Under the pieces are notes generated by a model. It made no database searches. It saw only the letters and a list, made by a program, of their open reading frames with translations, and had not been told where the DNA came from. DNA of 64,000 bases from an uncultured Bacteroidales bacterium (GTDB lineage Bacteria > Bacteroidota > Bacteroidia > Bacteroidales > UBA10428). A program made the position numbers and the translations under genes. The DNA lies in contig CAZTSR010000011.1 of the NCBI GenBank assembly GCA_964615995.1, positions 11,228-75,227 on the forward strand, read 5' to 3'. Positions 9,880-31,397 of this stretch are shown one piece after another (the stretch's first letter is position 1; every line of letters begins with the position of its first letter).

Positions 9880-10035
9880 AACGTTAGAATTTTTAGATAA
9901 TTATGCGCTTAAAAGTAGAAATAAAAAGGCAATTAATAAGAGCAATAAAGCACAATTCAATCATTTCTCAAAGATGCTTCCGTCAATCAATTTGGATCGT
10001 ACGTGTAAATTCGTTCGTATATCTCAATAATTTAG

Positions 10036-10043
10036 TACTTTTG
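10036..10043 (+). promoter_or_regulatory. candidate Bacteroidota -7 promoter element (TAnnTTTG) for the 10099-20061 operon
   Basis: TACTTTTG matches TAnnTTTG 56 nt upstream of the ATG at 10099, inside a 219-nt AT-rich divergent intergenic region. I saw no clean -33 TTTG. Confidence 0.3.
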
Positions 10044-10098
10044 CATTTCTAAGGTTTTATTTTGCTTTATTAACACCCAAAAATAATCAAAAGCAAGC

Positions 10099-13000
10099 AT
10101 GAAAAAATCTTTCTTGGGGGTTCCCTTTTACAACCGTCAGGAAGTAACTTTGGTACTTCTGGTATCTATTCTTGCATTGCTGCTGGGTGCCTTTTTTTCT
10201 CTGTTTTCCATTGGTGCACATGTGCTGTTTTTGCAATCCTGGAAACCTGAACAACTTCCCCAGGCATTTATCATATCCGGGATTTTTGGAGCCGGATTCT
10301 TTTCTGCATATGGTGCCTTGAGCAGCCGGATGGGCTTCCGCAGGGTTTCTTTTCTGTTCCTTTTTGTTATTGCTGTAATTTGCGTCTCTTTATTCTTTTT
10401 CCATGATTATCTGATCGGGGTTCGCGTATTCGGTCTTTCATTGATGCTGCCTTTTACCCTGTGCATGCCGTTTACTTTTTTCATCGCAGTGTTTTTCCGG
10501 AGATTCACACTTCATGTATTCACCCCTTATCAGCACAGACGTTTTAATCCCATCACACGCGCCGCCTTTGTTGCAGGAATCATCGGATCGGGCTATTTGT
10601 TAGTACTCGCCCTTTTCATTTCATGGGACATATTGTATATTTTGGCATTAGATGCCATACTTATCTTTACAGCTATCCTGGTTTATATGATACTGAACCG
10701 GTTCAGGAAGAAGGCATCTTTTAAACACGTTCAGAGTAAAAGGGTTGCACCTTTGCGCTCCCGGTTCTATGAGCTTTTTTATACACGTTATACTTTATTA
10801 CTGCTGGGTTTTGTGGTGCTTTCCGCATTGATTGGTTTTATCATCCATTTTCATTTTGTACGCGAAACGCGGTTAAATTACCCCGACACCATAGGACTGG
10901 CAAAGTTTTTTGGCTTTTTCACCGGAACTATGTTTTTTTTCGTGTTCAGCGTTGAGCGGTTATTAGTTCGGAAAATTCTTTATGCATACGATTCTCCCTA
11001 TAGTTTGGTCATTGTTCCTGTGGTGATGATTCTGGCATCTGTCGCTGCCCTGATTGTTGACTTGCTGGTCGGACAATCGAATGCCATAGCAAGGTTTTCT
11101 TTCGGATTTCTGATGGTTGCCATGATGAAAATCGGTTATGAAACCACATTTGACGCCATTGAAATCCCTTCGTTACGTGTACTCTACAGAACCCTTGATC
11201 TGAGATTTTTAACCTCCATCAAACCCAGGCTGGAGGGTTCCTTCCGGATGGTATCACTTGTAATTGCAGGGTTGCTGATCAGCGGCTTTATGTTTATGAA
11301 TCTGAACCGAAGTTTGCATATAAATTTAATGATTCTGGTTTTGACCCTGATATGGTTTCCATTAGGCATTTTTCTGGTAAAAGCATATCAGGACGCACTC
11401 CGTGAATACATTCGAAGACTTCGGGCAAGTAAAAGGACAATCCGTCAGGACACCCAGAATATTGATGAAAAATCACATGCGCTCATTAACAACAATGATC
11501 CCTATAAATCCATCAATACATTATCTGTTATTGAAAGGCTTGAACCATTGACTCATCAGAAACACCTGGCATCGTTGCTTAAAACGGAATCCGTTCCACT
11601 CAAAAAATACCTGCTTGAACGCATTGATAGCAATGCATTATTTAGTTTTCTGCCTAATCTGAAAGAGCTTCAAATATCAGATCTTAAGCAGCAAAATGGC
11701 AGCCTGTCAAAGATCATCAATCGTTTTGAAATTAAGATCAATGCCGGCAGTACAAAAATGGCACTTGAAAATCTGGTAAATTCAAATACACTTACCGACA
11801 GGATATTGGCTGCTGAAATCATCGGAAATAGTGATATTAAGGGGTATGCTCCCTATCTGCTTCAGTTATCACGCGATTTTGAGCCCGAGGTAAAACTGGC
11901 TTCGATTAAGGCCATGGCGCGACTGGGGAACTCAAATCACAGTCATGTTTTAATCGGATTTCTTACCACTTCTGTTTACTATCCTTATGCCTTTGAAGCC
12001 TTGGTGAAAATTGGGGAACCCGCTATTCCGTTCATGGAAGAGTGTTTTCTTTTGCCCGACGTGGAAGATATTCTGCTCCTGAGAATTGTAAGAATTTACG
12101 GAAAAATCGGAACCCAAACAGCTATTGATGCCCTGCTTGCAAAAATTGAAAACCAGAATCGTGCTGTTTCCCGTCAGTCGATGCTTGCTCTTAAAGAGGC
12201 CAAATTTCAATCATCTCCCGCCAACATAAACCGTATTCTAAATGACATTGTGCGCCTCATCAATGTTATGTCATGGAATTTCGGAGCCTATGCAAGTATT
12301 AAAAACAATCCTCATTTTGAAATGCTTCAGGAGGCCTTGTCCGAGGAACTATCCGACAATTATGAAACTCTTTACAACCTGCTTTCGCTTGCATATAATT
12401 CTACATCAATCGGGAATATCAAGCAAATGCTGAATGAGGGGAATGATACGGATATCAGTTTTGCCATTGAACTGCTTGACCAGATTGTAAATGAAGAAAT
12501 CAAGCAGGTGTTTTTCCCTGTGGTTGAAAACATTCCGGTAAATGACCGGTTTAAACAATTACAGTATTTTTTCCAGGGCATAAAAGAAGACCCTGAAAAT
12601 CTGATACAGGACATTATTACGAGGGACTTTAATCAGATATCCCTGTATGTAAAGGCTTGCGCCCTATACAGTATACTAAAGCTTAACTCAAAACAACCCG
12701 GACAAGAGGTGATTTCCAGTATATTTCATCCAAACATGTTAATTATGGAAACAGCGGCCTTTGTGGTTCACTCGCTTCAGCCGGAAATGCTTGATTCGGT
12801 ATACGACCGCCTTCCCAGGGAAAAAGTTAATGACATTAAGTTGTCATTAAGTAAAATCCACGATGGAATACCCTTCTTATTACTCGACCGTATTCATTTT
12901 ATAAGATGCTGCGAACTGCTCAGGAATATCTCAGAAGATATTCTTATTGAGATATCAAGAGCCCTGGTGGTTCATCAGATGAAGGCCGATGAAGAATTTC

Positions 13001-13263
13001 TGATAAAACGTGAAGATGTACACTTTGCATTTATGATTATCATCGATGGTATGGCCCAAATCAATATTTCTTCAGGCAAAGTATCTACCTTTGTGAAAAA
13101 TGATATAATTTACAGCGATATTTTGGTAGAGGATAACACTTATTTGCTTAAGGCACTTACTGATCTGAAATTTTACAGTCTTGAACAGGAAGTTCTTAAC
13201 GCACTGATGTTCGATCACATTGAATTTAGAGATGCTGTTCTTGAAATTATTGAAGAATCATAA
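10099..13263 (+). CDS. polytopic membrane protein (~12 TM, MFS/TLC-transporter-like) fused to HEAT-like repeats and a C-terminal cNMP-binding-like domain
   Basis: 1054-aa ORF. About 12 hydrophobic helices by eye in aa 1-430, with a K/R-rich N-terminus. An alpha-solenoid region around aa 560-700 (ILAAEIIGNSDIKGYAPYLLQLSRDFEPEVKLASIKAMARLGN...) looks like HEAT repeats. The last ~130 aa follow the CAP/cNMP beta-roll pattern (FLIKREDVHFAFMIIIDGMAQINISSGK...), but the phosphate-binding cassette is degenerate. Confidence 0.55.
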   Translation: MKKSFLGVPFYNRQEVTLVLLVSILALLLGAFFSLFSIGAHVLFLQSWKPEQLPQAFIISGIFGAGFFSAYGALSSRMGFRRVSFLFLFVIAVICVSLFFFHDYLIGVRVFGLSLMLPFTLCMPFTFFIAVFFRRFTLHVFTPYQHRRFNPITRAAFVAGIIGSGYLLVLALFISWDILYILALDAILIFTAILVYMILNRFRKKASFKHVQSKRVAPLRSRFYELFYTRYTLLLLGFVVLSALIGFIIHFHFVRETRLNYPDTIGLAKFFGFFTGTMFFFVFSVERLLVRKILYAYDSPYSLVIVPVVMILASVAALIVDLLVGQSNAIARFSFGFLMVAMMKIGYETTFDAIEIPSLRVLYRTLDLRFLTSIKPRLEGSFRMVSLVIAGLLISGFMFMNLNRSLHINLMILVLTLIWFPLGIFLVKAYQDALREYIRRLRASKRTIRQDTQNIDEKSHALINNNDPYKSINTLSVIERLEPLTHQKHLASLLKTESVPLKKYLLERIDSNALFSFLPNLKELQISDLKQQNGSLSKIINRFEIKINAGSTKMALENLVNSNTLTDRILAAEIIGNSDIKGYAPYLLQLSRDFEPEVKLASIKAMARLGNSNHSHVLIGFLTTSVYYPYAFEALVKIGEPAIPFMEECFLLPDVEDILLLRIVRIYGKIGTQTAIDALLAKIENQNRAVSRQSMLALKEAKFQSSPANINRILNDIVRLINVMSWNFGAYASIKNNPHFEMLQEALSEELSDNYETLYNLLSLAYNSTSIGNIKQMLNEGNDTDISFAIELLDQIVNEEIKQVFFPVVENIPVNDRFKQLQYFFQGIKEDPENLIQDIITRDFNQISLYVKACALYSILKLNSKQPGQEVISSIFHPNMLIMETAAFVVHSLQPEMLDSVYDRLPREKVNDIKLSLSKIHDGIPFLLLDRIHFIRCCELLRNISEDILIEISRALVVHQMKADEEFLIKREDVHFAFMIIIDGMAQINISSGKVSTFVKNDIIYSDILVEDNTYLLKALTDLKFYSLEQEVLNALMFDHIEFRDAVLEIIEES

Positions 13264-13268
13264 GAAGA

Positions 13269-14726
13269 ATGAGTTTTGAACAAGACATATTTATAGCATT
13301 TGCTCCGTCATCCGGCAATGAAAACCAGGTAACTGCTGCCTGGACAGCAAAATTTTGTGAATATTTCAGTGTCTTAATGAACCGGATTGGAGAAAAGCAA
13401 CCAGTCATTCTTCTGCATGACGATTTGCGCGTGAGGCAGTCTGTTCTGGGTGATAATCCCGGCAGTGTTTATTCTAAAACCGGTGTTTACATAGTCATCC
13501 TTTCACCTGAATATGTAAAATCCAAAACATACATGAAAGAATTAGAGGACATGTATGAATGGATTGAACGCGAAAATGGCACATCCAAAAAACAACACCG
13601 GATATTTAAGGTTTATACCCAACCCTTAACTGCCAATGAACAACCTGCCTTTTTAAAAAACGAGTTGAGCTACGATTTTTATGAAATAAACAGATATAAC
13701 AAAAAGCCCGTCACATTTGAAACGGTTGTCAAAGACAACCCCAATGAGAAATTCTGGTCGAAACTTGTAGATTTAGCTTATGATATCTCCGATGTGCTTA
13801 ACAATCTTTCAGGTTTGTCGGAAAAAAAAGCAGAAACGCCAATGCCCTCCGTGTTTCTGGCTGAAACAACCTTTGACCAAACCGAAAATCGCGACCGGCT
13901 CAAACGGGAATTACAATATCTGGGATACCATGTTTTGCCAGCCTTGCCATTGCCTGATGATGCTGAGCATGCAAAACAAGCCATTGAAAAATGCCTGGAT
14001 GAATCTGTTGTAACCATCCATCTTTTGGGAGCCTGGTATGGTGATTTTATCAAAAACTCCAAGTTGTCATCCATCGATTTTCAAATTAAAACGGTAAAAG
14101 ATTACATTGCGGCTAAAGATAAAATCCATAAACCTTATCAGATCATCTGGATACCCAACGATATTAAACCTACTGATCAAAGACAATCTCTTTATCTGAA
14201 AAGGCTTCAGAGAGATGAAGCACAATATCTTACTGAAATTATAGAAACGCCCTTTGAAGTATTCAAAACCATTTTAAATACCCGGCTGGCCGATCTTTCA
14301 AATCCCAAAAACAAACCTCTGGCTGAAAAGAATAAGCTTTATGTGATTTATGAAAAATCATCGGAAGCTGTATTTGCAGAATATAATGAAATCATGCGCA
14401 AAAGAGGTTTTGAAGTTCTGCTGCACAACAGTAACGGGGAGGACTTTTTCCCATTATCAAGCCATATCAATAATCTGTTATGTGCAGATGCTGTTCTGAT
14501 ATATAAAGGAAATAGCACCATGGAATGGTTGAACAGCAAAATCCGGGATCTGGTAAAAACACCCGGTTTTGGTAAAAATAAGTCTTTCAGGGCTATAGAA
14601 ATTATTTCAACGCAAAAAACTGCTGATAAATCCATGCTGTTTTTAAAGAATGTTCCTGTAAACTGGGATGAAGAAATAAATACCGATGTGGTGAACCATT
14701 TTTTAGATTCTCTGGTAAAGAAATGA
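13269..14726 (+). CDS. soluble protein with three tandem TIR-like / DUF4062-like modules
   Basis: 485-aa ORF with no signal peptide or TM. Module 1 (aa 1-180) has DIFIAFAPS...VILLHDDL...VYIVILSPEYVKSKTYMKELEDM, which follows the TIR pattern (DvFiS...vvlSp.y..S.WC..EL) and keeps the Glu. Module 2 (aa 194-340) has VFLAETTFDQTENRDRLKRELQYLGYHV...HLLGAWYG, resembling DUF4062. Module 3 (aa 356-485) is TIR-like without the Glu. The gene starts 5 nt after the upstream stop. Confidence 0.6.
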   Translation: MSFEQDIFIAFAPSSGNENQVTAAWTAKFCEYFSVLMNRIGEKQPVILLHDDLRVRQSVLGDNPGSVYSKTGVYIVILSPEYVKSKTYMKELEDMYEWIERENGTSKKQHRIFKVYTQPLTANEQPAFLKNELSYDFYEINRYNKKPVTFETVVKDNPNEKFWSKLVDLAYDISDVLNNLSGLSEKKAETPMPSVFLAETTFDQTENRDRLKRELQYLGYHVLPALPLPDDAEHAKQAIEKCLDESVVTIHLLGAWYGDFIKNSKLSSIDFQIKTVKDYIAAKDKIHKPYQIIWIPNDIKPTDQRQSLYLKRLQRDEAQYLTEIIETPFEVFKTILNTRLADLSNPKNKPLAEKNKLYVIYEKSSEAVFAEYNEIMRKRGFEVLLHNSNGEDFFPLSSHINNLLCADAVLIYKGNSTMEWLNSKIRDLVKTPGFGKNKSFRAIEIISTQKTADKSMLFLKNVPVNWDEEINTDVVNHFLDSLVKK

Positions 14727-17700
14727 CAGAAAACCCGATTCGAAATATAAAAACCAATACGTATACCCTGGCGAACCCGTTCCCGGGACTTCGTCCATTC
14801 AGTGTGGATGAAAGCCACCTGTTTTTTGGCCGCGAAGGACAATGTGAAATTGTATTGAGCTATCTGGCCAAAAACCGGTTTGCGGCAGTTACAGGAGCTT
14901 CAGGCAGTGGAAAATCATCGTTGATTTATTGCGGTCTGATTCCGGCATTATATGGAGGTTTCATTACCAATGCCGGTTCAAAATGGAGGATTATCACTAC
15001 ACGGCCTGGTAACAGTCCGGTTGAGAACCTGGCTGAAGCCATTGCTGATAACGATATAGCAGGCAAAAAAGAAACCGACCTTCCACTGCATAAACAAATT
15101 ATTTATACGCTCCTTCGCAGAAGTTCTTTTGGATTGGTCGACGCAGTGAAGCAAATCAAGCTCAATCCGGGCGAAAATATATTGTTGATCCTTGACCAGT
15201 TTGAAGAACTCTTTCGTTTTAAGGAAAGCCGCAAAGATATTACTGTGGTTAACGAGACGGAAGCGTACATTAAAATGCTTGTAAATGCCATCCGGCAAAA
15301 AGATCAGCCTATCTATGTAGTGCTTACGATGCGGTCGGATTTTATCGGAGAATGTTCTCAGTTCCAGGAACTCACCAGGCTTATTAATAAAAGCAATTTT
15401 CTGATACCGCAGATGACCCGGGACGATTTCAAGGAAGCTGTTACAGGTCCATTGGCCGTTGGCGGAGCTGAGATTGATCCCCTTTTGCTTCAGCATCTGC
15501 TCAATGCCATTGAGGATAAAAATGACCAGTTACCGGTTTTGCAGCATGTGATGATGCGTACCTGGGAATTCTGGACACGCAGCAACGAGATTAACGCTCC
15601 CTTACGCATGCGTGATTATGAAGTAGCAGGAAGAATAGAGAATGCATTGTCAATGCATGCTAATGAAGCTTTTGAAGAACTCACTGAAGAAGGAAAGATC
15701 ATTTGCAAAGCGGTTTTCCGTTGCCTTACTGAAAAAGGAACAGACAATAAAGGTACGCGGCATCCTGCCACCGTCCGACATATTGCAGAAATTGCCCAGG
15801 TATCCGATCAGAAAGTAATTGATGTAGTAAGCAAGTTCAGAGCCAAAGGGCGGTCTTTTCTTACCCCGGGTGACGACGTTCAAATTGATACAGATACCGT
15901 GATTGATATATCCCATGAAAGCTTGATGCGTATCTGGGATAAACTGAAATCATGGGTTGATGAAGAATTTTCTTCCGTTCAAATGTATTTAAGACTGGCT
16001 GAAGCTTCCTCCCAGTATCAGGTAGGAAAAACCGGACTCTGGCGTCCTCCCGACCTGCAATTGGCACTCAACTGGAAGAAAACTCAAAAACCTACACTCG
16101 CATGGGCCAGAAAATACAATCCGGCTTTTGAAAAGGTCATGGTATTTTTGGATGCCAGTGAGAAAAAATTCCAGCAGGAAGAACAAAACAAAGTGCGCCT
16201 GCAACGCATGGAACTGAATCGTACCCGAAAATTTGCTGTTTCCTCCCTGCTTGCTGCTGTCGCTTTTCTGTTTATTTCAGTTTGGGGCTTCCAGCAACGT
16301 GCAGATGCCATTAAACAGGCACGCGAGGCTGAATCGTCAAGAGATGAAGCTGAATACAGAAAAAAAGAAGCCGACAGTCTGCGTGTAATTGCTGAAGGAA
16401 GTGCCACACAAGCTAACATTGAAAAATGGATGGCACAGATGAATGCTGATTCTTCTGAAAAAGAAAAGACCCTGGCTTATCTGCAATCCAAAGTTGCTGA
16501 ACAGGAAATGCAAATTGCCTACCAACAAGCAGAAGAAGCGGCCATAAAGAGCGCAACCTTCCGAAAGGAGAAGGAAGAAGCTGAAAAAACTGCCGAGCAT
16601 GCTATTGAACAACAATCAGTTACTGAGCGCGAGAAAATTCAGGAACTTAAAAAGAAAATGCTTTCCATTGCGCAGACCGTTGCTGTAAAATCCATACAGG
16701 CGGAAGACAGAAACCTGAAAGCTCTTCTGGCCTATCAATCTTATATTTTTAACCGCGACTATGACGGTCAATCCGATCATCCTGACACATACAATGCTCT
16801 GTATGGTGCCTTATGTGCATTTAACGGAGAAAATTACAATAACTTATCCGGACATATTGGTTCCGTGAAATCCATCGCTTTTCTTCCTTCATCCAACATA
16901 TTTTATAGTTCCGGCGTAGATGGCAAAATTTTGCGCTGGGATTTGGGAAGCAATGTGAAATCATACCGTACACTCATCAGCAACCCGTTTAACCGGTGTA
17001 TGGCCATTAGTCCAAATGGCCGGTGGCTTGCAAATGCAACTCCCACCTCAGGAATCCAGCTCTTTAATCTCAATACCAACAACCAGCCCGAATTGCTTCA
17101 GGGACATAAAAGCTGGATTGGCGTTCTGGCATTTACGCCTGACAGCAAGGGCCTGTTTTCTGCAAGTAATGACAAAACCATTATGTACTGGGATCTTGTA
17201 AACGGAGGAAATTCACAATTTATCTCTTTGCCTACAACCACCGTAAGATGTCTGGCTGTTTCCCCTGTGGGAAGATATCTTTTCGGAGGCACAGACGACG
17301 GCCGTCTGATTCGCTGGAATATCGATACCAAAGAAGAAACTGTGCTCTTCAGATCCGATAAAAACACCATATTTTCTATTGCTATTAATTCCACGGGTTC
17401 CCGACTGGCTTTTGTCGATAAAAATGGTTCCTTGCGCATTTTGGATGCGAGAAATAACAACATCATACGGACAATTGCTGCCCATTCCGTTCGTATTATG
17501 GATGTTAAATTCAGTCCGGACGATAAGCAAATTGCAACGTGCAGCTGGGATAAAACTGTTAAAATCTGGGATGCCATTAACTTAGGCAACAGGCCGATTA
17601 CCATTAACAAACATGAAAAATGGGCGCTGTCTGTAGCTTTCAGTCCCGATGGGAAATATCTGATTTCATCAGGTGAAGATGGCAAAATATACTATTGGCC

Positions 17701-17824
17701 TGCTCATGCCTCACAAATGGCCGACCAGATGTGCGGCAGAACAAACCGAAACCTGACCCAGCGGGAATGGGAATCCTATATCGGATATGATATCAACTAC
17801 CAAAAAACCTGTTCTAACAAATAA
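14723..17824 (+). CDS. STAND-type P-loop NTPase - TM helix - coiled coil - 7x WD40 protein
   Basis: 1033-aa ORF. Walker A is AVTGASGSGKSSL, preceded by FFGRE, and Walker B is ILLILDQFEELF. One hydrophobic helix (FAVSSLLAAVAFLFISVWGF, nt ~16231-16293) has R/K clustered on its N-side. A coiled coil of ~150 aa rich in E, K, A and Q follows, then seven WD40 units (GH...WD-type), then a RNLTQREWESYIG tail. The start overlaps the upstream stop (ATGA at 14723-14726). Confidence 0.75.
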   Translation: MTENPIRNIKTNTYTLANPFPGLRPFSVDESHLFFGREGQCEIVLSYLAKNRFAAVTGASGSGKSSLIYCGLIPALYGGFITNAGSKWRIITTRPGNSPVENLAEAIADNDIAGKKETDLPLHKQIIYTLLRRSSFGLVDAVKQIKLNPGENILLILDQFEELFRFKESRKDITVVNETEAYIKMLVNAIRQKDQPIYVVLTMRSDFIGECSQFQELTRLINKSNFLIPQMTRDDFKEAVTGPLAVGGAEIDPLLLQHLLNAIEDKNDQLPVLQHVMMRTWEFWTRSNEINAPLRMRDYEVAGRIENALSMHANEAFEELTEEGKIICKAVFRCLTEKGTDNKGTRHPATVRHIAEIAQVSDQKVIDVVSKFRAKGRSFLTPGDDVQIDTDTVIDISHESLMRIWDKLKSWVDEEFSSVQMYLRLAEASSQYQVGKTGLWRPPDLQLALNWKKTQKPTLAWARKYNPAFEKVMVFLDASEKKFQQEEQNKVRLQRMELNRTRKFAVSSLLAAVAFLFISVWGFQQRADAIKQAREAESSRDEAEYRKKEADSLRVIAEGSATQANIEKWMAQMNADSSEKEKTLAYLQSKVAEQEMQIAYQQAEEAAIKSATFRKEKEEAEKTAEHAIEQQSVTEREKIQELKKKMLSIAQTVAVKSIQAEDRNLKALLAYQSYIFNRDYDGQSDHPDTYNALYGALCAFNGENYNNLSGHIGSVKSIAFLPSSNIFYSSGVDGKILRWDLGSNVKSYRTLISNPFNRCMAISPNGRWLANATPTSGIQLFNLNTNNQPELLQGHKSWIGVLAFTPDSKGLFSASNDKTIMYWDLVNGGNSQFISLPTTTVRCLAVSPVGRYLFGGTDDGRLIRWNIDTKEETVLFRSDKNTIFSIAINSTGSRLAFVDKNGSLRILDARNNNIIRTIAAHSVRIMDVKFSPDDKQIATCSWDKTVKIWDAINLGNRPITINKHEKWALSVAFSPDGKYLISSGEDGKIYYWPAHASQMADQMCGRTNRNLTQREWESYIGYDINYQKTCSNK
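16850..17701 (+). repeat. seven WD40 repeats (protein level) of the STAND NTPase
   Basis: Units begin GHIGSVKSIAF, NPFNRCMAISP, GHKSWIGVLAF, TTTVRCLAVSP, DKNTIFSIAIN, AHSVRIMDVKF and KHEKWALSVAF. They end in RWD, FNL, YWD, RWN, ILD, IWD and YYW. Confidence 0.8.
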
Positions 17825-17830
17825 ACTGTA

Positions 17831-18880
17831 ATGCCTTATTCAATAATCCAAAAAACCGGCCTCGTGATCGTGCTGATTCTATGCCTGAATTGGATATGGA
17901 CTTTGCCGGCCTGCGCTCAGAATGACTGCTCTACCAAAATTCAGGAGGCACAAAAGTACTATGAACAAGGTATGATTGATGAAATCCCGGCCATGCTCGG
18001 CCCGTGTATGCAGGATGGCTTTACCCGCACGCAAAAAATTGAAGCATATAAGCTGGTTATCATGTCCTATTTGCTTGATGACGATCAGTTTGAAGCGGAA
18101 CGTACCATGCTGGAATTTCTGAAGAAATATCCCGAATACGAAATCATGCCAAATGATCCCGTCGAATTTGTATATCTTTTTGAATCCTACCGGACAGCAT
18201 CTGTGTTTTCCTTTGGTATCACAGGAGGTTTGAATTTTACCGATCCCCGGATTATTGAACCTTACTCTACATCCGATCTCAATACAGCAGACCTGAAGAA
18301 TACCATGCGCGGAGGATTTCAGTTTGCACTGGGAGTCGAGCGGTACCTTAACCGTAAATTTTTGCTCAATCTTGAATTAGCATTTGCAACCAATCAATAT
18401 CAGTTTACTGATAAAATATCCACTCCTGCAAACAGCAGTACTGTGAAATACCAGGAAAAAATTGTCAAGCTGGAATTGCCCCTGACGGTTGCTTATGAAT
18501 TTACAATCAAACAAACACATCTTTTTGCCAGGGCTGGCTTTTCTGTGGCCCATCTTTCAAAGGTCACCGGGGAACCCTCGCGTGAAACTCCCGGAAATAA
18601 TCAGACCGGTGCCGATCTGGATATGTCCGGCTACCGGAAAAGCATGCTATATAGCGGGATTGTTGGTGCCGGCGTACGCTATAAAGTTCCAAGAGGAATT
18701 CTCCTTGTGGATCTCAGAGCGAATCTGGGCCTGAACAATATTGTTAAATCCGAAAAGCGGTATCAAAATCCGGAATTATACAACAAGTATTTTTATCTGG
18801 ATGATGACTTCGCCCTGAATACGTTTTCGCTGTCAGTAGGATATTATTTTTCATTTTATAGCCCCCGTAAACAACGCTGA
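17831..18880 (+). CDS. outer-membrane beta-barrel protein with an N-terminal helical (TPR-like) domain
   Basis: 349-aa ORF with a signal peptide (...LNWIWTLPACA-QND). The first ~90 aa after it are helical, the C-terminal ~220 aa alternate hydrophobic and polar residues like barrel strands, and a terminal strand reads FSLSVGYYF. It starts 6 nt after the upstream stop. Confidence 0.55.
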   Translation: MPYSIIQKTGLVIVLILCLNWIWTLPACAQNDCSTKIQEAQKYYEQGMIDEIPAMLGPCMQDGFTRTQKIEAYKLVIMSYLLDDDQFEAERTMLEFLKKYPEYEIMPNDPVEFVYLFESYRTASVFSFGITGGLNFTDPRIIEPYSTSDLNTADLKNTMRGGFQFALGVERYLNRKFLLNLELAFATNQYQFTDKISTPANSSTVKYQEKIVKLELPLTVAYEFTIKQTHLFARAGFSVAHLSKVTGEPSRETPGNNQTGADLDMSGYRKSMLYSGIVGAGVRYKVPRGILLVDLRANLGLNNIVKSEKRYQNPELYNKYFYLDDDFALNTFSLSVGYYFSFYSPRKQR

Positions 18881-18882
18881 TT

Positions 18883-20061
18883 ATGAAAGTCCTCCATTTA
18901 TTCTGCATATGTCTGTTCATCACTCTGGTTTTTGCCTGTGATAAAGAAGAATTGTCCGATGCCCAATCTGAGAAGTTTGTTAAATATTATGCGAACTTCC
19001 CTGAATATACTGCTGCCGACGTAATCAACTATGAATCAGGATACGCTGTTTTGGGAACTGCTTTAACCGCTGATACCACAACACAAATTTGTCTGATCCT
19101 CACAGATGCTGAAGGAAATTCTATTGGCCAGGAAAAAGTATATGGAAGAGAGAAGAATGACCGTGCATATTGCTTAAAATCTTTGCCTGACGGTGGTTTT
19201 GTTATTATGGGGTCTTCTCAGCACCCCATTACTGATAAGCTTGAAGTAATGGTGATTAAAATCAACCGTGATGGAGAGCCGGTTTGGACACGCTTTATTT
19301 CTGAAGCCGGACAGAATGTAGAAGCTAAAAAGTTTGCTATTGGTGATAACGGCGCGATATACCTTGCCGGATATTGTTCCACAGCCGAAAAATCAAAAGA
19401 AATTTGGGTTTTTGCAATTAATTCAAATGGCAATGATTTATGGACGTCATCCAGAACTTTTGGCTACCAATGGGATGATGAAGCAGCATACCTGGATATA
19501 CTGGAAGATGGCGACTTATTAATGACAGGATACGTTACTCCAAATGGCACTGTAAATAATGCTTATTTGCTTAAAACCGACGCTGAAGGCAGCCTTGAAG
19601 CCTTTTTGCCCCTGATCTCAGTAGAAAATAAAGAAGGTTGTTCTGTAATTGCCCTGAATAACAACGATTTTCTTGTGCTAAGCACGCGTTCTGTCGGAGG
19701 TTACCAGGATATTGCCCTTGACATGATCGACTACGGCAATATGACCACAGTATGGACGCAAACTTATTTATCAGCAGCTGAAAATGAAATCAGCAAGGGC
19801 CTCATTCATTCCAACAATAAATACTATATCCTGAGTACAAAGAGTCCAAGTATTTCCAAATCTGTCATTTCCATCGTTACTGCTGATGCGGCAGGGAATA
19901 AACTTTCTGTAAACGATTTTGGATTGTCAACAGCATTGACCGCTTCTTCATTTCAAACAACCTCTGATGGAGGATTTATTATTGCCGGTACAAATGAAGT
20001 AAGCGAAGAGAACAATACTGCTCTTGCGCTTATTAAAACCAATGCAGCGCTGGGACTATAA
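18883..20061 (+). CDS. lipoprotein with ~7 repeated beta-propeller-like blades
   Basis: 392-aa ORF with a signal peptide and a plausible lipobox (LVFAC-D). Blade cores recur about every 45-50 aa: GYAVLGTA, GGFVIMGSS, GAIYLAGY, GDLLMTGY, DFLVLSTR, KYYILSTK, GGFIIAGT. It starts 2 nt after the upstream stop. Confidence 0.5.
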   Translation: MKVLHLFCICLFITLVFACDKEELSDAQSEKFVKYYANFPEYTAADVINYESGYAVLGTALTADTTTQICLILTDAEGNSIGQEKVYGREKNDRAYCLKSLPDGGFVIMGSSQHPITDKLEVMVIKINRDGEPVWTRFISEAGQNVEAKKFAIGDNGAIYLAGYCSTAEKSKEIWVFAINSNGNDLWTSSRTFGYQWDDEAAYLDILEDGDLLMTGYVTPNGTVNNAYLLKTDAEGSLEAFLPLISVENKEGCSVIALNNNDFLVLSTRSVGGYQDIALDMIDYGNMTTVWTQTYLSAAENEISKGLIHSNNKYYILSTKSPSISKSVISIVTADAAGNKLSVNDFGLSTALTASSFQTTSDGGFIIAGTNEVSEENNTALALIKTNAALGL

Positions 20062-20172: not shown

Positions 20173-20285
20173 TACTTAGTATGGAACTCATGCCCATATG
20201 GTTATAATCTGAGGATTGTTCCATCTGACAAGTTTTCAACCGAACCTGAAATATCATGTCTAACACGCTGCCTGAACCGTTCACT

Positions 20286-23200
20286 ATGAAAAATTTCTAT
20301 ACCCAAAAAGTTGTTTTGTCTGTGATTCTCATTTCCGGGATGGCCCTTTGTGCTCAAAGTCAGTCGACTGTTGCTGCTGATGACGACTATGAGATGGAGG
20401 AAGGATCAGAACTTACAATTTCGGCCCCGGGTGTACTGGAAAACGACCTGTCTGAATTCTCATTAACAGCACATCCTGTATCTGAACCATCGCATGCTAA
20501 TGCTCCGTTCATTCTACAGGAAGACGGCTCTTTTGTATACCAGCACGATGGATCTGAAACTACGTCCGATGCATTTCAATATACAGCTTATGACGGCATA
20601 GAAGAAAGTGCCCCTGCCACTGTCAATATACAGATTATTCCGGTAAATGATGCCCCGCAGATTTCAGACATTCCTGATGTTACCACTAATAAAGGTGAAG
20701 AATTTGCTGTCATTGAGCTCGACAAGCTGGTAACTGATGCCGAGAACGATCCCGCTGACATGTCATGGACTGTTAACAGTACCGTAGACCTGGATGTATC
20801 TGTTGATGAGGAAACTCATTTTGCCAGCATTGACGTTCCATCTGAATCCTGGACAGGTTCTGAAACCATTACATTCACAGTTACAGATACCGAAAATGGT
20901 ACCGATTCTGATGAAGCAACTTTTACAGTGCTGAATGTGAATGCTCCTCCGGGCAATCTTTCTCTAAGTTCACACACACTGGATGAAAATGCACCTCCTT
21001 CTACCATCATTGGGAATCTTTCAGCAACAGATCCTGATGTGGGTGATGTCATCATTTTTTCACTCCCTGCAGGGGTACTGGACAATAATCTGTTTAACCT
21101 GAATGCCAATACAGGCGCACTCAGAAAGAATGTCAGTGCTGATTATGAAAACATAAAAACCTATACCGTAAGGGTTAGGGCAACAGATGCCATAAATGAA
21201 TATTCAGAGGCCGATTTTATCATTTCCATTACCAATGTGAATGAAGCACCGACCAACCTGACATTAAGCAACTCTTCGATTAATGAAGGCCTGCCGGCAC
21301 ATTCTGTAGTAGGTTCCTTTACAATCACGGATCCGGATGTCGGCGATCCTCATATGATTGTATTTACTGCAGGTGGTGCTGATAACAATAAATTTAATAT
21401 TGAAGGCAGCAACCTGACTACCAGTCAACCCCTTGACTTTGAATCTGATCCCTCGTTGCAAATTGAACTTTCAGTATCTGACTTGCAAGGTCTGAGCATT
21501 ACAAAGCAATTTAACATTACAGTTCTTGATGTTGCCGATGCCCCTACTGATATTTCGCTTTCACCTAATACAATTGCTGAGAATCAACCCATCAACACGT
21601 TAGTTGGCACACTGAGCAGCACCGATCCGGATGCCGGTGAAACATTTACCTACACTTTTGCTTCAGGTGGCGCAGATAATGCATCATTCAATATATCCGG
21701 AAACCAGTTACGGTCCAGCGCCATTTTTAATTTTGAAGCTGTAAGTTCCTATGTCATCAGAATCCGGACGACAGACAGCCAATCAAATTTCTTTGAAAAG
21801 GATCTTACCATAACCATTACCAACGTATTTGAAAAACCCACAGACATAGCACTGTCATCTGCTTCAATCGCTGAAAATCTTCCAGCCGGTACCGCGGTAG
21901 GGACGCTTACGGCAACCGACCCTGACATGTTTGAAACATTCACTTTTTCGCTTCCGTCCGGAACCCCTGACAATGCTTTCTTTACGATTTCCGGAAACGA
22001 ATTGCGCACTGCTGCGAAATTCGATTATGAAACCCTGCTGCCAAGCCACTCCTATTCAATCAATATCCGCTGTACAGACAACAACTCCCAATTTTTTGAC
22101 AAAGCATTTACCATAAATGTTACCGATGTAAATGAAGGAGTTGCTTCCATCACCGGAGGAGGAACCTTTTGCGCCGGAGCAGCTATGACCATCACGCTGA
22201 ACATTTCCGGAGGTAACGGCCCGTTTAATCTCACACTTACCCGCACACTGAGTACTTCCAATAAGGATACTTCCATAACATCGATCGGCACCCTGCCTTA
22301 TAATATCATTGTCCGGATTCCTGGGACCTATACCATTAAGGCTTTAACCGATAAGGATAACAACCCCGGTACATTTTCATTAACTCCGGTAGTTCTGGTG
22401 CAAAACCCCAGGGCAAAAGCCATACTTACGCCTGTTACCCAGGCTATTTGTAAGGATGGTGTATCTCTGGCAACGCTGCATGTGAATTTTACAGCTGGTG
22501 TTGGCCCTTACCAGATTAAAGTGCAAAGGGGCAATAATGCTTCAAATGATACTACCATTACCAGGGCTGCTGATTTTGATTTTCATTCGCGGGTGTTCGA
22601 CAACACCATTACCAGGCACCGGATCATTCAAATTCTGGATAAGGACAATTGTGCAGGGGATACAACAGGATCAGGCACTGCGTTGGTTTCATACAAGGCA
22701 TCTCCTGTTGCCACTATTTCAGGGACTGCCACCATTTGCCCGGGAGCCAGCACGCCGCTTACCATTACGCTTCAGGGAACTGCCCCGTGGAATATTGCAT
22801 ATCGCAAGGATGCCGGCAGCCCTCAGACCATTACCAATATTCAAACTTCACCGCATACTCTGAATGTTAATTCAGCCGGGCGATATACTTTATATTCAGT
22901 ACAGGATGCATCGTGTACAGGCACTGTTAGTGGCGAGGCCGTAATTACTGCCAATATTGTTCCGGTTGCTACCTTAAGCGGTAGCGCTACCATTTGTGAA
23001 CATACCACTGCAAATCTGAGTCTGGCTATTACAGGCTCTAACAGCCCCTGGAAGTTTTATTATAAATTAAATTCCGGAGATTCCATTATTGTGGATGGTA
23101 TTGGAACCAGTCCTGCTTCCATCCCGGTTTCTAAAGCAGGTAATTATTCGGCACTGAAAATTGTCGACAAAAACAATTGTGTGGGAACAGTTTCAGGGAA

Positions 23201-25529
23201 TCCGGCAATAACGGTTACCCCTGCTCCCAATGTAACTGTTAGTGGCCTGCTTCCGGCTTATAACAAAGATGTTTTACGTGTTCCCGTAAGTGTTAATCCT
23301 TCAAGTTCATTCCACATTGCTCATCCTGCACTATTTCCATATGAAAATGTACTGCATTTCTGGCCGACCCTTGCTACCATAGGAACTCATAATCTCGTAT
23401 TTTATTATGAAGATCCCGGTACACATTGTGTTGGCTATGATACTGCAACCGTCAGGGTACTTGCTGCACAATCTCAGATATTTTTTGAAAAAGAAAAAAC
23501 CACCTATTGTACCAATGACGGACCCTTTAAGGTTACCGGCGTGAATGTCCCCAATAAAATAGGTACATTTACAATTCAGGGTGGAATCGGACTTGTAGAT
23601 CATGGCGATAATACGGCGACTGTTTATCCGAAACAATTAACTGCCAATACTTACAAGATAACATATACGTATATTCAAGATGGTGTGCCCCTTTCGGTCT
23701 CAAATAATCTCGATATCGGCAACAAACCTGTTGCCAATTTCGCATGGGCTACGGAATGCTATCAACAGGGTCAGTCCATTTCATTTACCAATATTTCAGT
23801 GTCGCCTTATGGCGCATTTACAGATACCAGTTATTTCTGGAAGATATATGGCGCTTCATCCTTTATTTCAAAAACCACCAGAAACATTACACATGCTTTT
23901 GAACAGGCGGGGAATCAAACCATTGAATTGCAAATTGAAAATTCATATGGCTGTGCAGATACCATTGTAAAAATATTTCCCTTACGCCCGACCATTGATT
24001 TGATGGATGATTATTCTGAAAGTTTTGAAGGTCCTGCACTGGGTTGGAAAAGCGGTAATTCTGAAACTGTAAACAGCTGGCAGCTGGGTACTCCGACATC
24101 CGGATACATACCTGGCAGTACAAAATGCTGGTATACAAAGATCACATCAACAGTTCCTCCCAGTGAACATTCATGGGTTACCAGTCCTTGTTACGATTTT
24201 ACGCATGCGGATAAACCCATGGTGAAAATGAACATATGGCGTTTATTTAATCTCAACACCAATGCAGACGGTGCTAATCTTCAGTTTTCTGCCGACAGCG
24301 GAAAAACATGGACTCTGGTTGGCGATATAGCGGATGGGAAAAACTGGTATAATAGCTATATTATTACAGGCTTGCCAGGAGGATCGGGTATTGGCTGGTC
24401 GAATGTGAAGGATGCCTCATGGATTGATTCACGCCATTCACTGGATATGTTAAAGGGTAAAAAATGGGTTCAGTTCCGAATCACTTATGGGTCGGATTCA
24501 AGAGTTCGCAATACAAACGGTATTGCCTTTGACGATTTTTCGATTATAGATCGCTCCCGAATGTCATTGATTGAACACTTCACAAATTCATCTGATACGG
24601 ATACTGAAATAGCCGATGCTTTGCTGGATACCTTCACGAACAATAACCTTGCTCATGTGATCAACATCCAATACCATACTTCAAATCCTGCAGGTGATCC
24701 GTTCTATACAGATAACACCCAGGTTACAAATTTGCGTCAGTTTTACTACGGATTGTCAGCAGCGCCTTATGCATTATTAAACGGAGGCACGTCTGTTTCT
24801 CAACGTTTTGACTATGTTGATGGCTCTAAACCGCTGAACACCAATACCGTTATTATTGAATCGCTGGACGACAGCAAGTTTGAGATCAATATGGATTCAA
24901 AAATAGATCAGGTATTGCGAACAAAAGTTCAGGTGGGAGCCCGTGCTAACATCTCTGCAAGCAATATCTCTGTTAAAATTGCCGTAATTGAAAGGATTAT
25001 AAACAGTGTTCCCGGCCAAAACGGAGATCAGGAATTTATGAATGTAGTGAAAGCCATGCTCCCAAGTCCTTCCGGAACCATCTATAACCGCGCATGGTCA
25101 AAGGATGAAGTGGTAGAAATTGAAAAAACATGGGAACTTCAGCATGTATATAATGCCAATGAGCTTAGGGTGGTTGCTTTTATTCAGAACGAGCAGACTC
25201 ATGAAATATACCAGGCTGCAATGGATACCATTGGTATTATCATATATGATGATATCAAAGATCCGCAGGCTTTTGATGAGGCTGGTTTTACAATTTACCC
25301 CAATCCTGCCAATCAGCATGCAACAGTATTGTTTAATGAAGAAACCAAAGAAGACCTGAAAATTGAACTTTTCAACAGTACGGGTAAACTGGTGCATTCC
25401 ACGGTTATTTCTGCCGGTGAATCGTCTGTTGATATACCACTGGATGCCTATCCTGATGGGTTATATTTGATGAGGCTTGTAACCGAGGACCGGTTACTGG
25501 GAATCCGAAAATTAGTCATCTCCCGATAA
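20286..25529 (+). CDS. giant T9SS-secreted adhesin: cadherin-like repeats, Cys-bracketed Ig-like modules, PKD-like, MAM/lectin-like and Omp28/thioredoxin-like regions, and a type-A T9SS C-terminal domain
   Basis: The ORF track starts at 20256. The Met at 20286 gives a proper signal peptide (MKNFYTQKVVLSVILISGMALCA-QSQ). Four cadherin-type units carry DENAPP...TDPDVGD. The C-terminus is a T9SS CTD: IYPNPANQHATVLF...GLYLMRLVTEDRLLGIRKLVISR. Confidence 0.8.
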   Translation: MKNFYTQKVVLSVILISGMALCAQSQSTVAADDDYEMEEGSELTISAPGVLENDLSEFSLTAHPVSEPSHANAPFILQEDGSFVYQHDGSETTSDAFQYTAYDGIEESAPATVNIQIIPVNDAPQISDIPDVTTNKGEEFAVIELDKLVTDAENDPADMSWTVNSTVDLDVSVDEETHFASIDVPSESWTGSETITFTVTDTENGTDSDEATFTVLNVNAPPGNLSLSSHTLDENAPPSTIIGNLSATDPDVGDVIIFSLPAGVLDNNLFNLNANTGALRKNVSADYENIKTYTVRVRATDAINEYSEADFIISITNVNEAPTNLTLSNSSINEGLPAHSVVGSFTITDPDVGDPHMIVFTAGGADNNKFNIEGSNLTTSQPLDFESDPSLQIELSVSDLQGLSITKQFNITVLDVADAPTDISLSPNTIAENQPINTLVGTLSSTDPDAGETFTYTFASGGADNASFNISGNQLRSSAIFNFEAVSSYVIRIRTTDSQSNFFEKDLTITITNVFEKPTDIALSSASIAENLPAGTAVGTLTATDPDMFETFTFSLPSGTPDNAFFTISGNELRTAAKFDYETLLPSHSYSINIRCTDNNSQFFDKAFTINVTDVNEGVASITGGGTFCAGAAMTITLNISGGNGPFNLTLTRTLSTSNKDTSITSIGTLPYNIIVRIPGTYTIKALTDKDNNPGTFSLTPVVLVQNPRAKAILTPVTQAICKDGVSLATLHVNFTAGVGPYQIKVQRGNNASNDTTITRAADFDFHSRVFDNTITRHRIIQILDKDNCAGDTTGSGTALVSYKASPVATISGTATICPGASTPLTITLQGTAPWNIAYRKDAGSPQTITNIQTSPHTLNVNSAGRYTLYSVQDASCTGTVSGEAVITANIVPVATLSGSATICEHTTANLSLAITGSNSPWKFYYKLNSGDSIIVDGIGTSPASIPVSKAGNYSALKIVDKNNCVGTVSGNPAITVTPAPNVTVSGLLPAYNKDVLRVPVSVNPSSSFHIAHPALFPYENVLHFWPTLATIGTHNLVFYYEDPGTHCVGYDTATVRVLAAQSQIFFEKEKTTYCTNDGPFKVTGVNVPNKIGTFTIQGGIGLVDHGDNTATVYPKQLTANTYKITYTYIQDGVPLSVSNNLDIGNKPVANFAWATECYQQGQSISFTNISVSPYGAFTDTSYFWKIYGASSFISKTTRNITHAFEQAGNQTIELQIENSYGCADTIVKIFPLRPTIDLMDDYSESFEGPALGWKSGNSETVNSWQLGTPTSGYIPGSTKCWYTKITSTVPPSEHSWVTSPCYDFTHADKPMVKMNIWRLFNLNTNADGANLQFSADSGKTWTLVGDIADGKNWYNSYIITGLPGGSGIGWSNVKDASWIDSRHSLDMLKGKKWVQFRITYGSDSRVRNTNGIAFDDFSIIDRSRMSLIEHFTNSSDTDTEIADALLDTFTNNNLAHVINIQYHTSNPAGDPFYTDNTQVTNLRQFYYGLSAAPYALLNGGTSVSQRFDYVDGSKPLNTNTVIIESLDDSKFEINMDSKIDQVLRTKVQVGARANISASNISVKIAVIERIINSVPGQNGDQEFMNVVKAMLPSPSGTIYNRAWSKDEVVEIEKTWELQHVYNANELRVVAFIQNEQTHEIYQAAMDTIGIIIYDDIKDPQAFDEAGFTIYPNPANQHATVLFNEETKEDLKIELFNSTGKLVHSTVISAGESSVDIPLDAYPDGLYLMRLVTEDRLLGIRKLVISR
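20941..22137 (+). repeat. four tandem ~100-aa cadherin-like repeats (protein level, diverged at DNA level)
   Basis: Each unit has the pattern N(V/E)(N/A)(E/D)APT(N/D)(L/I)(T/S)LS...(I/L)(D/N/A)EN.P....VG.L(S/T)(A/T)TDPD.G(D/E)...F.......DN..F.I.G..L.....(F/D)(D/N)(Y/F)E and ends in (I/V)T(N/D)V. Confidence 0.75.
22138..23246 (+). repeat. four ~93-aa Cys-bracketed Ig-like modules
   Basis: Units begin ITGGGTFCAG, LTPVTQAICKDG, ISGTATICPGA and LSGSATICEHT. Each has a G..GP(F/Y/W) core and, in the last three, a distal D(K/A).(N/S)C.G motif (the first module has no second Cys). Confidence 0.6.
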
Positions 25530-31389: not shown

Positions 31390-31397
31390 CTATTCCC

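Follow-up and report, generated by a model that had tools for sequence, protein, structure and literature searches.

A conserved gene cassette is described here in which a transporter-type fusion protein is linked to a membrane STAND NTPase and to envelope proteins. The cassette was found in a 64,000-nucleotide stretch of DNA from an uncultured Bacteroidales bacterium (assembly GCA_964615995.1, contig CAZTSR010000011.1, positions 11,228 to 75,227), referred to as the window. Its first gene, gene A, is a real, conserved gene encoding an inner-membrane protein. The cassette is conserved and chromosomally fixed, with the order A-C-D-E-F in Cytophagales and A-B-C-D-E-F in Bacteroidales. The three-part architecture of A is itself already known; the linkage to STAND and envelope genes is the main new result. 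The operon-level system, composed of an NTT-HEAT-CNB protein (CNB, cyclic-nucleotide-binding), a membrane STAND-WD40 protein, an outer-membrane barrel, a lipoprotein and a giant type IX secretion system (T9SS) protein, with or without a TIR/NIR protein, appears to be undescribed in the literature searched. A may be the inner-membrane partner or the output of an envelope-spanning STAND switch, a reading to which we give a little less than an even chance. The genes of the cassette in the window are as follows.

10099..13263, + strand: gene A, 1054-aa NTT(TLC)-HEAT-CNB-like fusion protein (open reading frame with ATG start, orthologs, AlphaFold2 model)
13269..14726, + strand: gene B, 485-aa cytoplasmic protein with three alpha/beta domains (Pfam on orthologs, profile, AlphaFold2, Foldseek, alignment)
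14723..17824, + strand: gene C, 1033 aa, with an nSTAND1 NTPase domain (19-434), a juxtamembrane region (435-500), one transmembrane (TM) helix, a coiled coil (about 525-690) and WD40 repeats (about 700-1010) (Pfam, sequence, conservation)
17831..18880, + strand: gene D, 349 aa, with a signal peptide, a helical N-domain and an outer-membrane beta-barrel (Pfam OMP_b-brl_2, E 2e-17; sequence)
18883..20061, + strand: gene E, predicted lipoprotein of 392 aa (signal LVFAC|DKEE) carrying repeats of the beta-propeller type (NCBIfam matches to delta-60 repeat and SBBP; sequence)
20256..25529, + strand: gene F, 1757-aa cadherin/Ig-repeat protein with a T9SS C-terminal sorting domain (Pfam Cadherin, Big_9, Por_Secre_tail)

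Conservation of the gene cassette in Bacteroidales

The five genes A to E come after an aroK/DUF3127 pair and are tightly packed, with gaps of 5 nt (A-B), 6 nt (C-D) and 2 nt (D-E) and a 4-nt overlap between B and C. Orthologous loci at 71%, 62%, 42% and 25% identity were inspected. All four showed the A-B-C order near shikimate-pathway genes, and the three closer ones (71%, 62%, 42%) also contained D and E. The homologs in these loci are thus strictly linked to STAND and TIR-like genes, the linkage by which the preliminary description had proposed to judge gene A.

The synteny was then scanned in one genome per species, with tblastn for the downstream genes. This gave 70 loci, all from uncultured Bacteroidales or Bacteroidota. 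B and then C followed A in every Bacteroidales locus with enough downstream DNA. D and E were present in all Bacteroidales loci except those of a clade at about 27% identity, and aroK or aroA adjoined the cassette in most. The gene order and the aroK/aroA neighbourhood were constant over about 60 Bacteroidales species-level genomes. A giant same-strand open reading frame followed E in 41 of 50 loci across both subfamilies, with repeat types that vary by lineage.

The surroundings in the window are housekeeping genes, including aroA, topoisomerase IV, a class II tRNA synthetase and cytochrome bd, and no mobile or defence genes were seen among the neighbours. PADLOC returned no match for A, B, D or E, and for C two marginal matches of about 20 residues, the size of a P-loop. 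The constant neighbourhood and the housekeeping neighbours led us to reject a mobile defence island, and a classical mobile phage-defence role of the cassette looks unlikely.

A Cytophagales subfamily carries the cassette without gene B

A relative with 23% identity to A (P0320) lies directly next to an nSTAND1-WD40 gene followed by an outer-membrane barrel gene, and gene B is absent. An extracytoplasmic function (ECF) sigma factor upstream of P0320 was considered as a partner and rejected, as 0 of 61 loci keep one. A metagenome scan with a 17-sequence alignment of this subfamily gave 80 loci, 67 of which have at least 2.5 kb of downstream DNA. C immediately followed A in 53 of these 67 loci, and gene B was found in none of the 67. 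D came after C in all 34 loci with DNA available beyond C, and E was next in most. The named members of the subfamily are Cytophagales, namely Fulvivirga species, Cyclobacteriaceae and Ohtaekwangia. The complete genome of Fulvivirga ligni (CP089979.1) has A-C-D-E in this order, and a 2842-aa PKD/Por_Secre_tail protein is encoded next. These results identify Fulvivirga (F. ligni, F. imtechensis) and Ohtaekwangia as cultured hosts of the cassette.

Because the Cytophagales cassette is A-C-D-E-F without B, the pairing of A with a STAND gene is not tied to the TIR gene, and it probably predates it. The ancestral cassette would be A-C-D-E-F, and B is most simply explained as an insertion in the Bacteroidales branch.

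Gene A encodes a divergent NTT-HEAT-CNB fusion protein

The open reading frame of gene A spans exactly 10099..13263, with an ATG start and 1054 codons, at the position first described. About 65 full-length orthologs with 42-84% identity, all about 1050 aa long, were found by a word-indexed search; those carrying an organism name are all Bacteroidales metagenome-assembled genomes. An exhaustive profile search of 1.84 billion representatives gave 6690 relatives when the cut-off was E<=1e-3; at E<=1e-30, 1351 cluster representatives remained, and nearly all of their top 150 are full length at about 1050 aa. Many of the orthologs are labelled 'ATP:ADP antiporter, AAA family' by JGI pipelines.

An AlphaFold2 model built from 28 family members was confident, with a mean predicted local distance difference test (pLDDT) score of 85 and a predicted TM-score (pTM) of 0.76. 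It contains 12 long helices in residues 13-443, an uninterrupted alpha-solenoid in residues 454-955, and a beta-roll in residues 957-1028 followed by two C-terminal helices. The parts of A are listed below.

10099..11433, + strand: residues 1-445, 12-TM MFS-fold NTT/TLC-type domain (Foldseek top matches 9j3l, 9j3m, 9j3n; relative P0300 passes Pfam TLC; motif alignment)
11458..12963, + strand: residues 454-955, cytoplasmic all-alpha HEAT/ARM-type solenoid of about 500 aa (Pfam HEAT_2, profile, AlphaFold2 helices)
12871..13260, + strand: residues 925-1054, CNB-homology domain of beta-roll and C-terminal helices (family profile against PDB; Foldseek)
13099..13164, + strand: residues 1001-1022, remnant of the phosphate-binding cassette, NDIIYSDILVEDNTYLLKALTD (family alignment; HMMER alignment to PfPKG)

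HEAT_2 was the sole match when A itself was scanned with Pfam, and NCBIfam and PADLOC scans added nothing. Because these single-sequence scans gave HEAT_2 alone, the homology of the TM and CNB domains was argued via profiles, relatives and structure.

For the TM part, AtNTT1 and Chlamydia pneumoniae NTT1 ranked first in a Foldseek search against PDB (E 7e-7 to 4e-6, TM-score 0.67-0.74), and the generic MFS carriers LacY and MdfA ranked behind them. The modelled 12-TM MFS-type fold is therefore nearest to the solved NTT structures. The A-family profile did not reach the NTT1 chains among PDB sequences; they were reached by the fold search and by the relative P0069. Membership in Pfam TLC is not attained by the score of A itself and is transitive via P0300, which matches the A-family profile at E 1e-143 and passes Pfam TLC with 31.3 bits against a cut-off of 21. 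The distant relatives P0067-P0070 also carry PF03219. Taken together, the model and the relatives support the assignment of the TM domain to the NTT/TLC type.

At the sites of the TLC signature (FW..aN.I....eAKRfY, after TM4) and of the PLD..K.K.K..ID motif, the A clade has FFRRFTLHVFTPYQHRRF and TLDLRFLTSIKPRLEG. The Gln and the dibasic pair of the signature are retained, and the Trp-Gly is gone. FWG...LRQGKR is intact in the Cytophagales subfamily and in the members with a canonical phosphate-binding cassette. The YGLK loop is replaced in the A clade by an invariant cytoplasmic loop, LY(A/S)YDSPYS (294-302). All 12 helices are kept, together with the intramembrane polar residues H41, Y71, Q145, Q196, H250, K269, E348, R369, R377 and R383.

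The HEAT_2 match covers residues 561-623 (E 1e-7). The middle region matches alphaRep HEAT proteins at E 7e-15 by profile and PP2A PR65 by fold. The mean identity to A is 58% in the HEAT region, the best conserved part, compared with 48.5% in the TM part.

A therefore joins in one polypeptide, from N- to C-terminus, an NTT domain, HEAT repeats and a CNB domain, as the preliminary description had read from the sequence: the HEAT repeats were found directly, the transporter-like part through NTT fold matches and the CNB part through profile matches to PKG. The relative P0067 (21% identity, phmmer E 3.7e-8) carries all three Pfam domains. By its profile and phmmer links, A looks like a strongly diverged branch of the NTT-HEAT-cNBD fusions (cNBD, cyclic-nucleotide-binding domain), a family already known but uncharacterised. 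In their original description, NTT-HEAT and NTT-HEAT-cNBD fusions are monophyletic, widespread in bacteria and of unknown function, and Chlamydia, cyanobacteria and oomycetes are among the groups reported to have such fusions (Major, Embley and Williams 2017, Genome Biol Evol, PMC5381601). No later functional work on these fusions was found in the literature searched. A has the same three parts in the same order as the fusions described there. It differs in being too diverged for Pfam TLC and cNMP_binding and in its destroyed phosphate-binding cassette. The branch of A differs further in its Bacteroidota operon with a STAND NTPase, outer-membrane proteins and, in Bacteroidales, the TIR/NIR protein, a link not mentioned in the accessible part of PMC5381601. 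A testable functional context is thereby provided for NTT-HEAT fusions, in that a Bacteroidota branch is locked to a membrane STAND NTPase and envelope proteins.

The phosphate-binding cassette of the CNB domain has decayed

The profile of the C-terminal 130 residues of the family matched PKG CNB domains in PDB at E 3.4e-10, and the CNB homology domains (CNBHD) of KCNH channels (KCNH1, KCNH2) at E 2e-4 to 1e-3. The proposed search for a cyclic nucleoside monophosphate (cNMP) fold in this domain thus gave a positive answer. Similarly, Foldseek matched the CNB region to PKA-R 5k8s with a root-mean-square deviation of 3.8 A over 127 columns. The CNB fold is present in the model as the beta-roll of residues 957-1028 with its helices. 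The A protein itself gave no match to Pfam cNMP_binding (PF00027) at E<=0.1. P0320, which matches the A-family profile at E 1e-137, passes cNMP_binding with 33.3 bits against 27.5.

HMMER pairs the A residues K-N-D-I-I-Y1005-S1006-D-I-L with K-N-D-Y-F-G-E-R-A-L of PfPKG, leaving the P-R-T-A stretch opposite a gap. Y1005 and S1006 thus occupy the Gly-Glu positions, the Arg-Ser/Thr pair is gone, and the Arg position is gapped or variable. The family alignment shows no canonical cassette (Gly-Glu, Arg-Ser/Thr) throughout the Bacteroidales clade, and the Tyr is nearly invariant within it. The NDIIYSD that had been noticed in place of the canonical residues is therefore a conserved property of the clade. 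These alignments indicate that the CNB domain of A has lost the residues contacting cAMP or cGMP, and these cassette residues led us to reject A as a simple classical cAMP/cGMP receptor.

Canonical cassettes were found in the distant members P0067, P0264, P0315 and P0337; that of P0067 is the textbook FGEMALL..PRSATIVA. Three states of the phosphate-binding cassette were distinguished.

Canonical GE...R(T/N)A: stand-alone context, with no STAND or TIR gene nearby in L078/79 and L163; L080 is too short to tell
FGE kept, Arg replaced by Asn (GQFIGEML..P.F.N(T/S)N): Cytophagales subfamily, STAND-linked
Gly-Glu also lost: Bacteroidales clade, linked to STAND and TIR

The decay of the phosphate-binding cassette tracks the gene context. 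This is suggestive of, and would fit, a shift from cyclic-nucleotide sensing to the sensing of a partner or of another ligand.

The gene with the canonical cassette in L078 (P0264; L078 49-13319) lies directly behind the gene of a 2545-aa two-module non-ribosomal peptide synthetase and is followed by a saccharopine-dehydrogenase-like gene. Type IV pilus genes (pilMNO, secretin) are found further downstream, and no STAND or TIR gene is nearby.

Gene C is a membrane STAND NTPase encoded with envelope proteins

Pfam identified nSTAND1 (E 5.5e-90) and WD40 in gene C. One further feature of C is important for its topology.

16232..16291, + strand: residues 504-523 of C, single predicted TM helix after the conserved basic stretch LNRTRK (hydrophobicity in orthologs)

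This stretch is hydrophobic in 50 orthologs and in the C of the window. Among the Cytophagales-type orthologs, all 43 have a maximum 19-aa hydropathy of 2.26-3.21 at residues 507-517. By the positive-inside rule, C is predicted to have its N-terminus inside, with a cytoplasmic NTPase and a periplasmic coiled coil and WD40 domain. No gene of the cassette is better conserved than C (43-84% identity), and within the operon conservation peaks in the cytoplasmic juxtamembrane region of C, residues 435-500, with 87% mean identity. C has no effector domain of its own, since only 18 residues precede the NTPase domain. C with B contains a STAND NTPase, a C-terminal repeat sensor and an adjacent effector candidate; which protein acts as the effector is inferred.

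Two T9SS cargo proteins with Por_Secre_tail come after the operon. One is the 1757-aa cadherin/Ig/Omp28 protein (20256-25529), and the other is a 732-aa PKD protein (25610-27808).

A proposed envelope-spanning switch

In the reading of A as partner or output of a STAND switch, the periplasmic coiled coil and WD40 domain of C would read the state of a surface complex of D, E and F. The cytoplasmic NTPase of C would then switch or oligomerise. The HEAT and CNB-homology module of A would receive this switch, because no protein of the ancestral cassette other than A and C faces the cytoplasm. Much as the CNBHD does in KCNH channels, the CNB-like domain of A would work as a conformational switch that needs no ligand or responds to something other than a cNMP. 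A would then alter its carrier activity, most plausibly for an adenine-nucleotide-type solute in view of its NTT ancestry. In Bacteroidales, the TIR/NIR-like protein B would have been inserted between A and C as an extra cytoplasmic component, binding or cleaving nicotinamide adenine dinucleotide (NAD), and the CNB-like domain of A would have lost its last cassette residues when B came in.

A wider proposal, which is more speculative and which we regard as rather doubtful, is that A-(B)-C-D-E-F is an undescribed, Bacteroidota-wide and vertically inherited trans-envelope signalling machine. The WD40 domain of the STAND protein would read surface proteins, and A would be an output carrier gated via a CNB domain that moved from cNMP to partner sensing. 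If this were true, it would be the first functional context for the NTT-HEAT family, and NLR-type logic would serve outside-in signalling and not cytoplasmic immunity.

Several points weigh against the switch. The A protein gave no match to Pfam TLC (PF03219) or MFS/MFS_1 at E<=0.1, and the TLC signature is degraded in its clade, where FFRR...TPYQHRR replaces FWG...LRQGKR. The carrier may have stopped transporting, or it may use a quite different substrate. The tie of A to C or B is one of operon linkage. The periplasmic placement of the WD40 domain of C comes from one predicted helix and the positive-inside rule. TIR/NIR with STAND and WD40 is an architecture typical of immunity (2026 bioRxiv preprints). 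The correlation between the phosphate-binding cassette and gene context comprises few independent evolutionary events. Finally, 14 of the 67 Cytophagales-type loci (L091, L097, L098, L100-L105, L112, L120, L129, L138 and L155) have A without a downstream STAND gene, so A can exist without C. These copies have the same cassette type (GQFIGEML..NTN) as the STAND-linked ones, nothing obviously operonic was seen downstream of them, and they could be paralogous second copies.

Gene B and the possibility of a defence function

The AlphaFold2 model of B (pLDDT 80) has three alpha/beta domains: a TIR-like domain (1-150), a DUF4062/NIR-like domain (190-345) and a third domain (355-485). Among 29 B orthologs, Pfam found DUF4062 in 24 (best E 3.5e-7), TIR_2 in 15 and TIR in 7, in agreement with the TIR-module neighbour that had been noted next to A. 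The B profile aligns SPEY.KS..YLKELE to the SK.YA.S.WCL.ELVEI motif of plant TIRs. The Foldseek matches of B include SARM1, TIR-STING, MyD88, SNC1, Rcl and MilB. E91 stands at the TIR catalytic position in most orthologs; of the 30 aligned sequences, 4 have Asp there and 2 have Val or Tyr. Its retention in most orthologs is compatible with an NAD-processing step by B in Bacteroidales. The third domain has the invariant residues W420, K424, D427, G433 and G435 and matches no family.

The DUF4062-like domain has the invariant residues S267, D270 and Q272 (SxIDFQ), compared with S.TE.E in DUF4062. Asp270 and Gln272 are thus invariant at two DUF4062 Glu positions, one of which should be catalytic. 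The GT..E nucleophile motif of nucleoside deoxyribosyltransferases, which we take as a guide, would place the catalytic position at the one occupied by Gln. A catalytic Glu-to-Gln change abolishes PsAvs2 defence (2026 bioRxiv preprint on DUF4062/NIR). The DUF4062-like domain of B may be a non-catalytic pseudoenzyme that binds NAD or ADP-ribose.

The best alternative to the switch is an NLR-like abortive-infection system. In this explanation, the STAND protein detects an invader and switches on B, which produces a nucleotide derived from NAD. The degenerate CNB-like domain of A binds this nucleotide, and A kills or arrests the cell by efflux or permeabilisation. Some members of the NTT family carry NAD, B combines TIR and DUF4062 domains and keeps E91 in most orthologs, and the complete loss of Gly-Glu from the cassette coincides with the presence of B. 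nSTAND1 is found in predicted conflict systems, and DUF4062/NIR was shown to be an NADase effector in Avs-type and other defence systems and in TEP1, which shares the DUF4062-NTPase-WD40 logic (2026 bioRxiv preprints). However, PADLOC gave at most the marginal matches to C. The locus is syntenic beside aroK/aroA in dozens of species and is housekeeping-flanked, and neither mobile nor defence genes adjoin it. Conservation in the cassette is highest in C, and a predicted periplasmic sensor with outer-membrane genes is unexpected for the sensing of cytoplasmic phage proteins. A-C-D-E-F occurs in Cytophagales without B, and B itself has Asp270/Gln272 where DUF4062 has Glu, with E91 replaced in the six orthologs mentioned above. 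Defence of this kind is thus considered unlikely.

The same data bear on the suggestion in the preliminary description that A is the receptor or the effector of a nucleotide signal, one that the TIR protein would produce. The linkage to a TIR gene held. The signal logic is doubtful because A-C occurs without the TIR gene and the cassette Arg is already lost there; the syntenic housekeeping locus, the predicted periplasmic sensor and Asp270/Gln272 in B point in the same direction. One point is compatible with a nucleotide signal, namely that the full loss of Gly-Glu coincides with gene B, and it comes from a single phylogenetic split.

Alternatives without defence

A second alternative is that the 12-TM domain of A is a non-transporting anchor or transceptor, and that the HEAT solenoid docks the STAND NTPase (and B) at the membrane. 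Such a pseudo-transporter scaffold would agree with conservation in A being highest in the HEAT region and lowest in the TM region, and with the degraded TLC signature and the lack of a Pfam TLC/MFS match. It would also agree with the clade-specific invariant motifs in cytoplasmic loops, such as LYSYDSPYS and TLDLRF, and with NTT-HEAT genes that stand elsewhere beside signalling genes (L004: STAS, FHA-GAF-SpoIIE; L081: HAMP-SpoIIE). But more than 1000 sequence clusters keep all 12 helices and several polar or charged residues within the membrane, a plain anchor would require far less, and the Cytophagales subfamily has an intact TLC signature in the same gene cassette. We regard a scaffold as quite unlikely.

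Trans-envelope uptake is a further alternative. E and D would capture and admit an extracellular nucleotide-type nutrient, the periplasmic part of C would relay or report it, A would import it, and the STAND NTPase and CNB-like domain would tune transport, in a nutrient locus resembling the Bacteroidota polysaccharide-utilisation loci. This would suit the NTT-like nature of A, the polar residues conserved within its TM helices, and the housekeeping-like location with vertical inheritance. It would also suit an operon that encodes an outer-membrane barrel, an inner-membrane carrier and a predicted lipoprotein whose lipid-modified Cys is followed by an acidic stretch. We regard uptake as about as unlikely as a scaffold, or slightly more so. 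D is a small OMP_b-brl_2-type barrel and not a TonB-dependent transporter, the STAND-WD40 NTPase and the giant T9SS adhesin have no obvious uptake role, the TIR/NIR protein of Bacteroidales is left unexplained, and the TLC signature is degraded in the A clade.

Comparison with known systems

A and the NTT1 proteins AtNTT1 and CpNTT1 (PDB 9j3j-9j3o) have a common 12-TM MFS-type fold, with remnants of the TLC signature and of the PLD..K.K..ID motif in A. The identity is 14-15%, the signature Trp-Gly and Lys are replaced in A, and the NTT1 proteins are translocators without a cytoplasmic extension.

The CNBHD of KCNH (EAG/hERG) channels is similar to the CNB domain of A as a CNB fold without the cassette residues and, as predicted for A, without use of cAMP or cGMP, placed as a C-terminal cytoplasmic regulatory domain on a membrane transport protein. 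A has, as KCNH proteins have, a cassette without cNMP-contact residues. In KCNH domains, the pocket is filled by an intrinsic-ligand strand after helix C. In contrast, the chain of A ends at 1054 with the helix 1041-1053 (helix C), so that there is no intrinsic-ligand segment, and the two kinds of domain are not closely related, since PKG domains score better than KCNH domains.

The sperm Na+/H+ exchanger SLC9C1 (PDB 8pd7), a Foldseek match to A via its CNB domain, is a secondary transporter regulated by a C-terminal cytoplasmic CNB domain and is a precedent for a CNB-gated carrier. Unlike A, it has an NhaA-type carrier fold, a functional cAMP-binding CNB domain, and a voltage sensor instead of HEAT repeats.

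Membrane effectors of Pycsar and CBASS also have TM segments fused to a CNB-type sensor beside an immune-type enzyme gene. A differs from them in that it has no PADLOC match, no cyclase gene, a 12-TM carrier fold compared with 2-4 TM segments, a dead cassette and a chromosomally fixed locus.

DUF4062 ('NIR') is a TIR-like NADase in Swarozyc, Avs2, other NLR-like defence proteins and human TEP1; in human TEP1, NWD1 and NWD2 it lies beside a NACHT ATPase, several of these proteins also have WD40 repeats, and in prokaryotes DUF4062 is patchy and enriched near defence genes (bioRxiv 10.64898/2026.05.01.722283; 10.64898/2026.09.04.749371). B and C reproduce the series found in TEP1/NWD1 and NIR-Avs proteins (TIR-like/DUF4062, STAND NTPase, WD40) as two overlapping genes. 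They differ from those proteins by nSTAND1 in place of NACHT, a membrane anchor with WD40 predicted outside the cytoplasm, Asp/Gln in place of Glu, the absence of a defence island, and the inclusion of a transporter fusion and outer-membrane proteins. The core-genome locus of B is the opposite of the patchy, defence-near pattern in the preprints. An NLR-like and TIR/NIR module with a sensor predicted to be extracytoplasmic is thus found in a conserved core-genome locus, unlike the usual phage-defence setting of such domains.

Upstream region and variant neighbourhoods

A possible promoter element was read off the sequence about 58 nt 5' of the ATG of gene A.

10034..10041, + strand: TACTTTTG, possible Bacteroidetes-type -7 promoter element, a candidate only

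It fits TAnnTTTG, the Bacteroidetes promoter -7 consensus. No riboswitch or other Rfam family matched in positions 9300-10400, upstream of A, at E<=1. A forward-strand open reading frame directly upstream of A (9527-10030, 167 aa, TTG start) is probably spurious. It overlaps a minus-strand DUF3127 gene (9511-9879, Pfam E 2e-32), and homologous loci are annotated with the DUF3127 gene.

In the window, an ODP/metallo-beta-lactamase-flavodoxin gene of the flavodiiron type (27815-29026, minus strand) lies a few genes beyond the downstream end of the cassette, and cytochrome bd oxidase genes come next (29842-32555). An ODP/metallo-beta-lactamase-flavodoxin gene was also found immediately after gene C in another locus (L003 13544-14749).

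In the lineage of P0207 (27% identity, L081), a HAMP-SpoIIE (PP2C) phosphatase gene is located between A and B (13309-15291). A second HAMP-SpoIIE gene comes after the cassette (22394-23156), and an AbiEii gene lies just upstream of A. In locus L004 (7200-14210), the order is a STAS protein, an 806-aa TLC protein, the TLC-HEAT protein P0069 and an FHA-GAF-SpoIIE phosphatase. Judging by this context, the ties of NTT-HEAT proteins in other lineages may be to partner-switching signalling and not to STAND NTPases.

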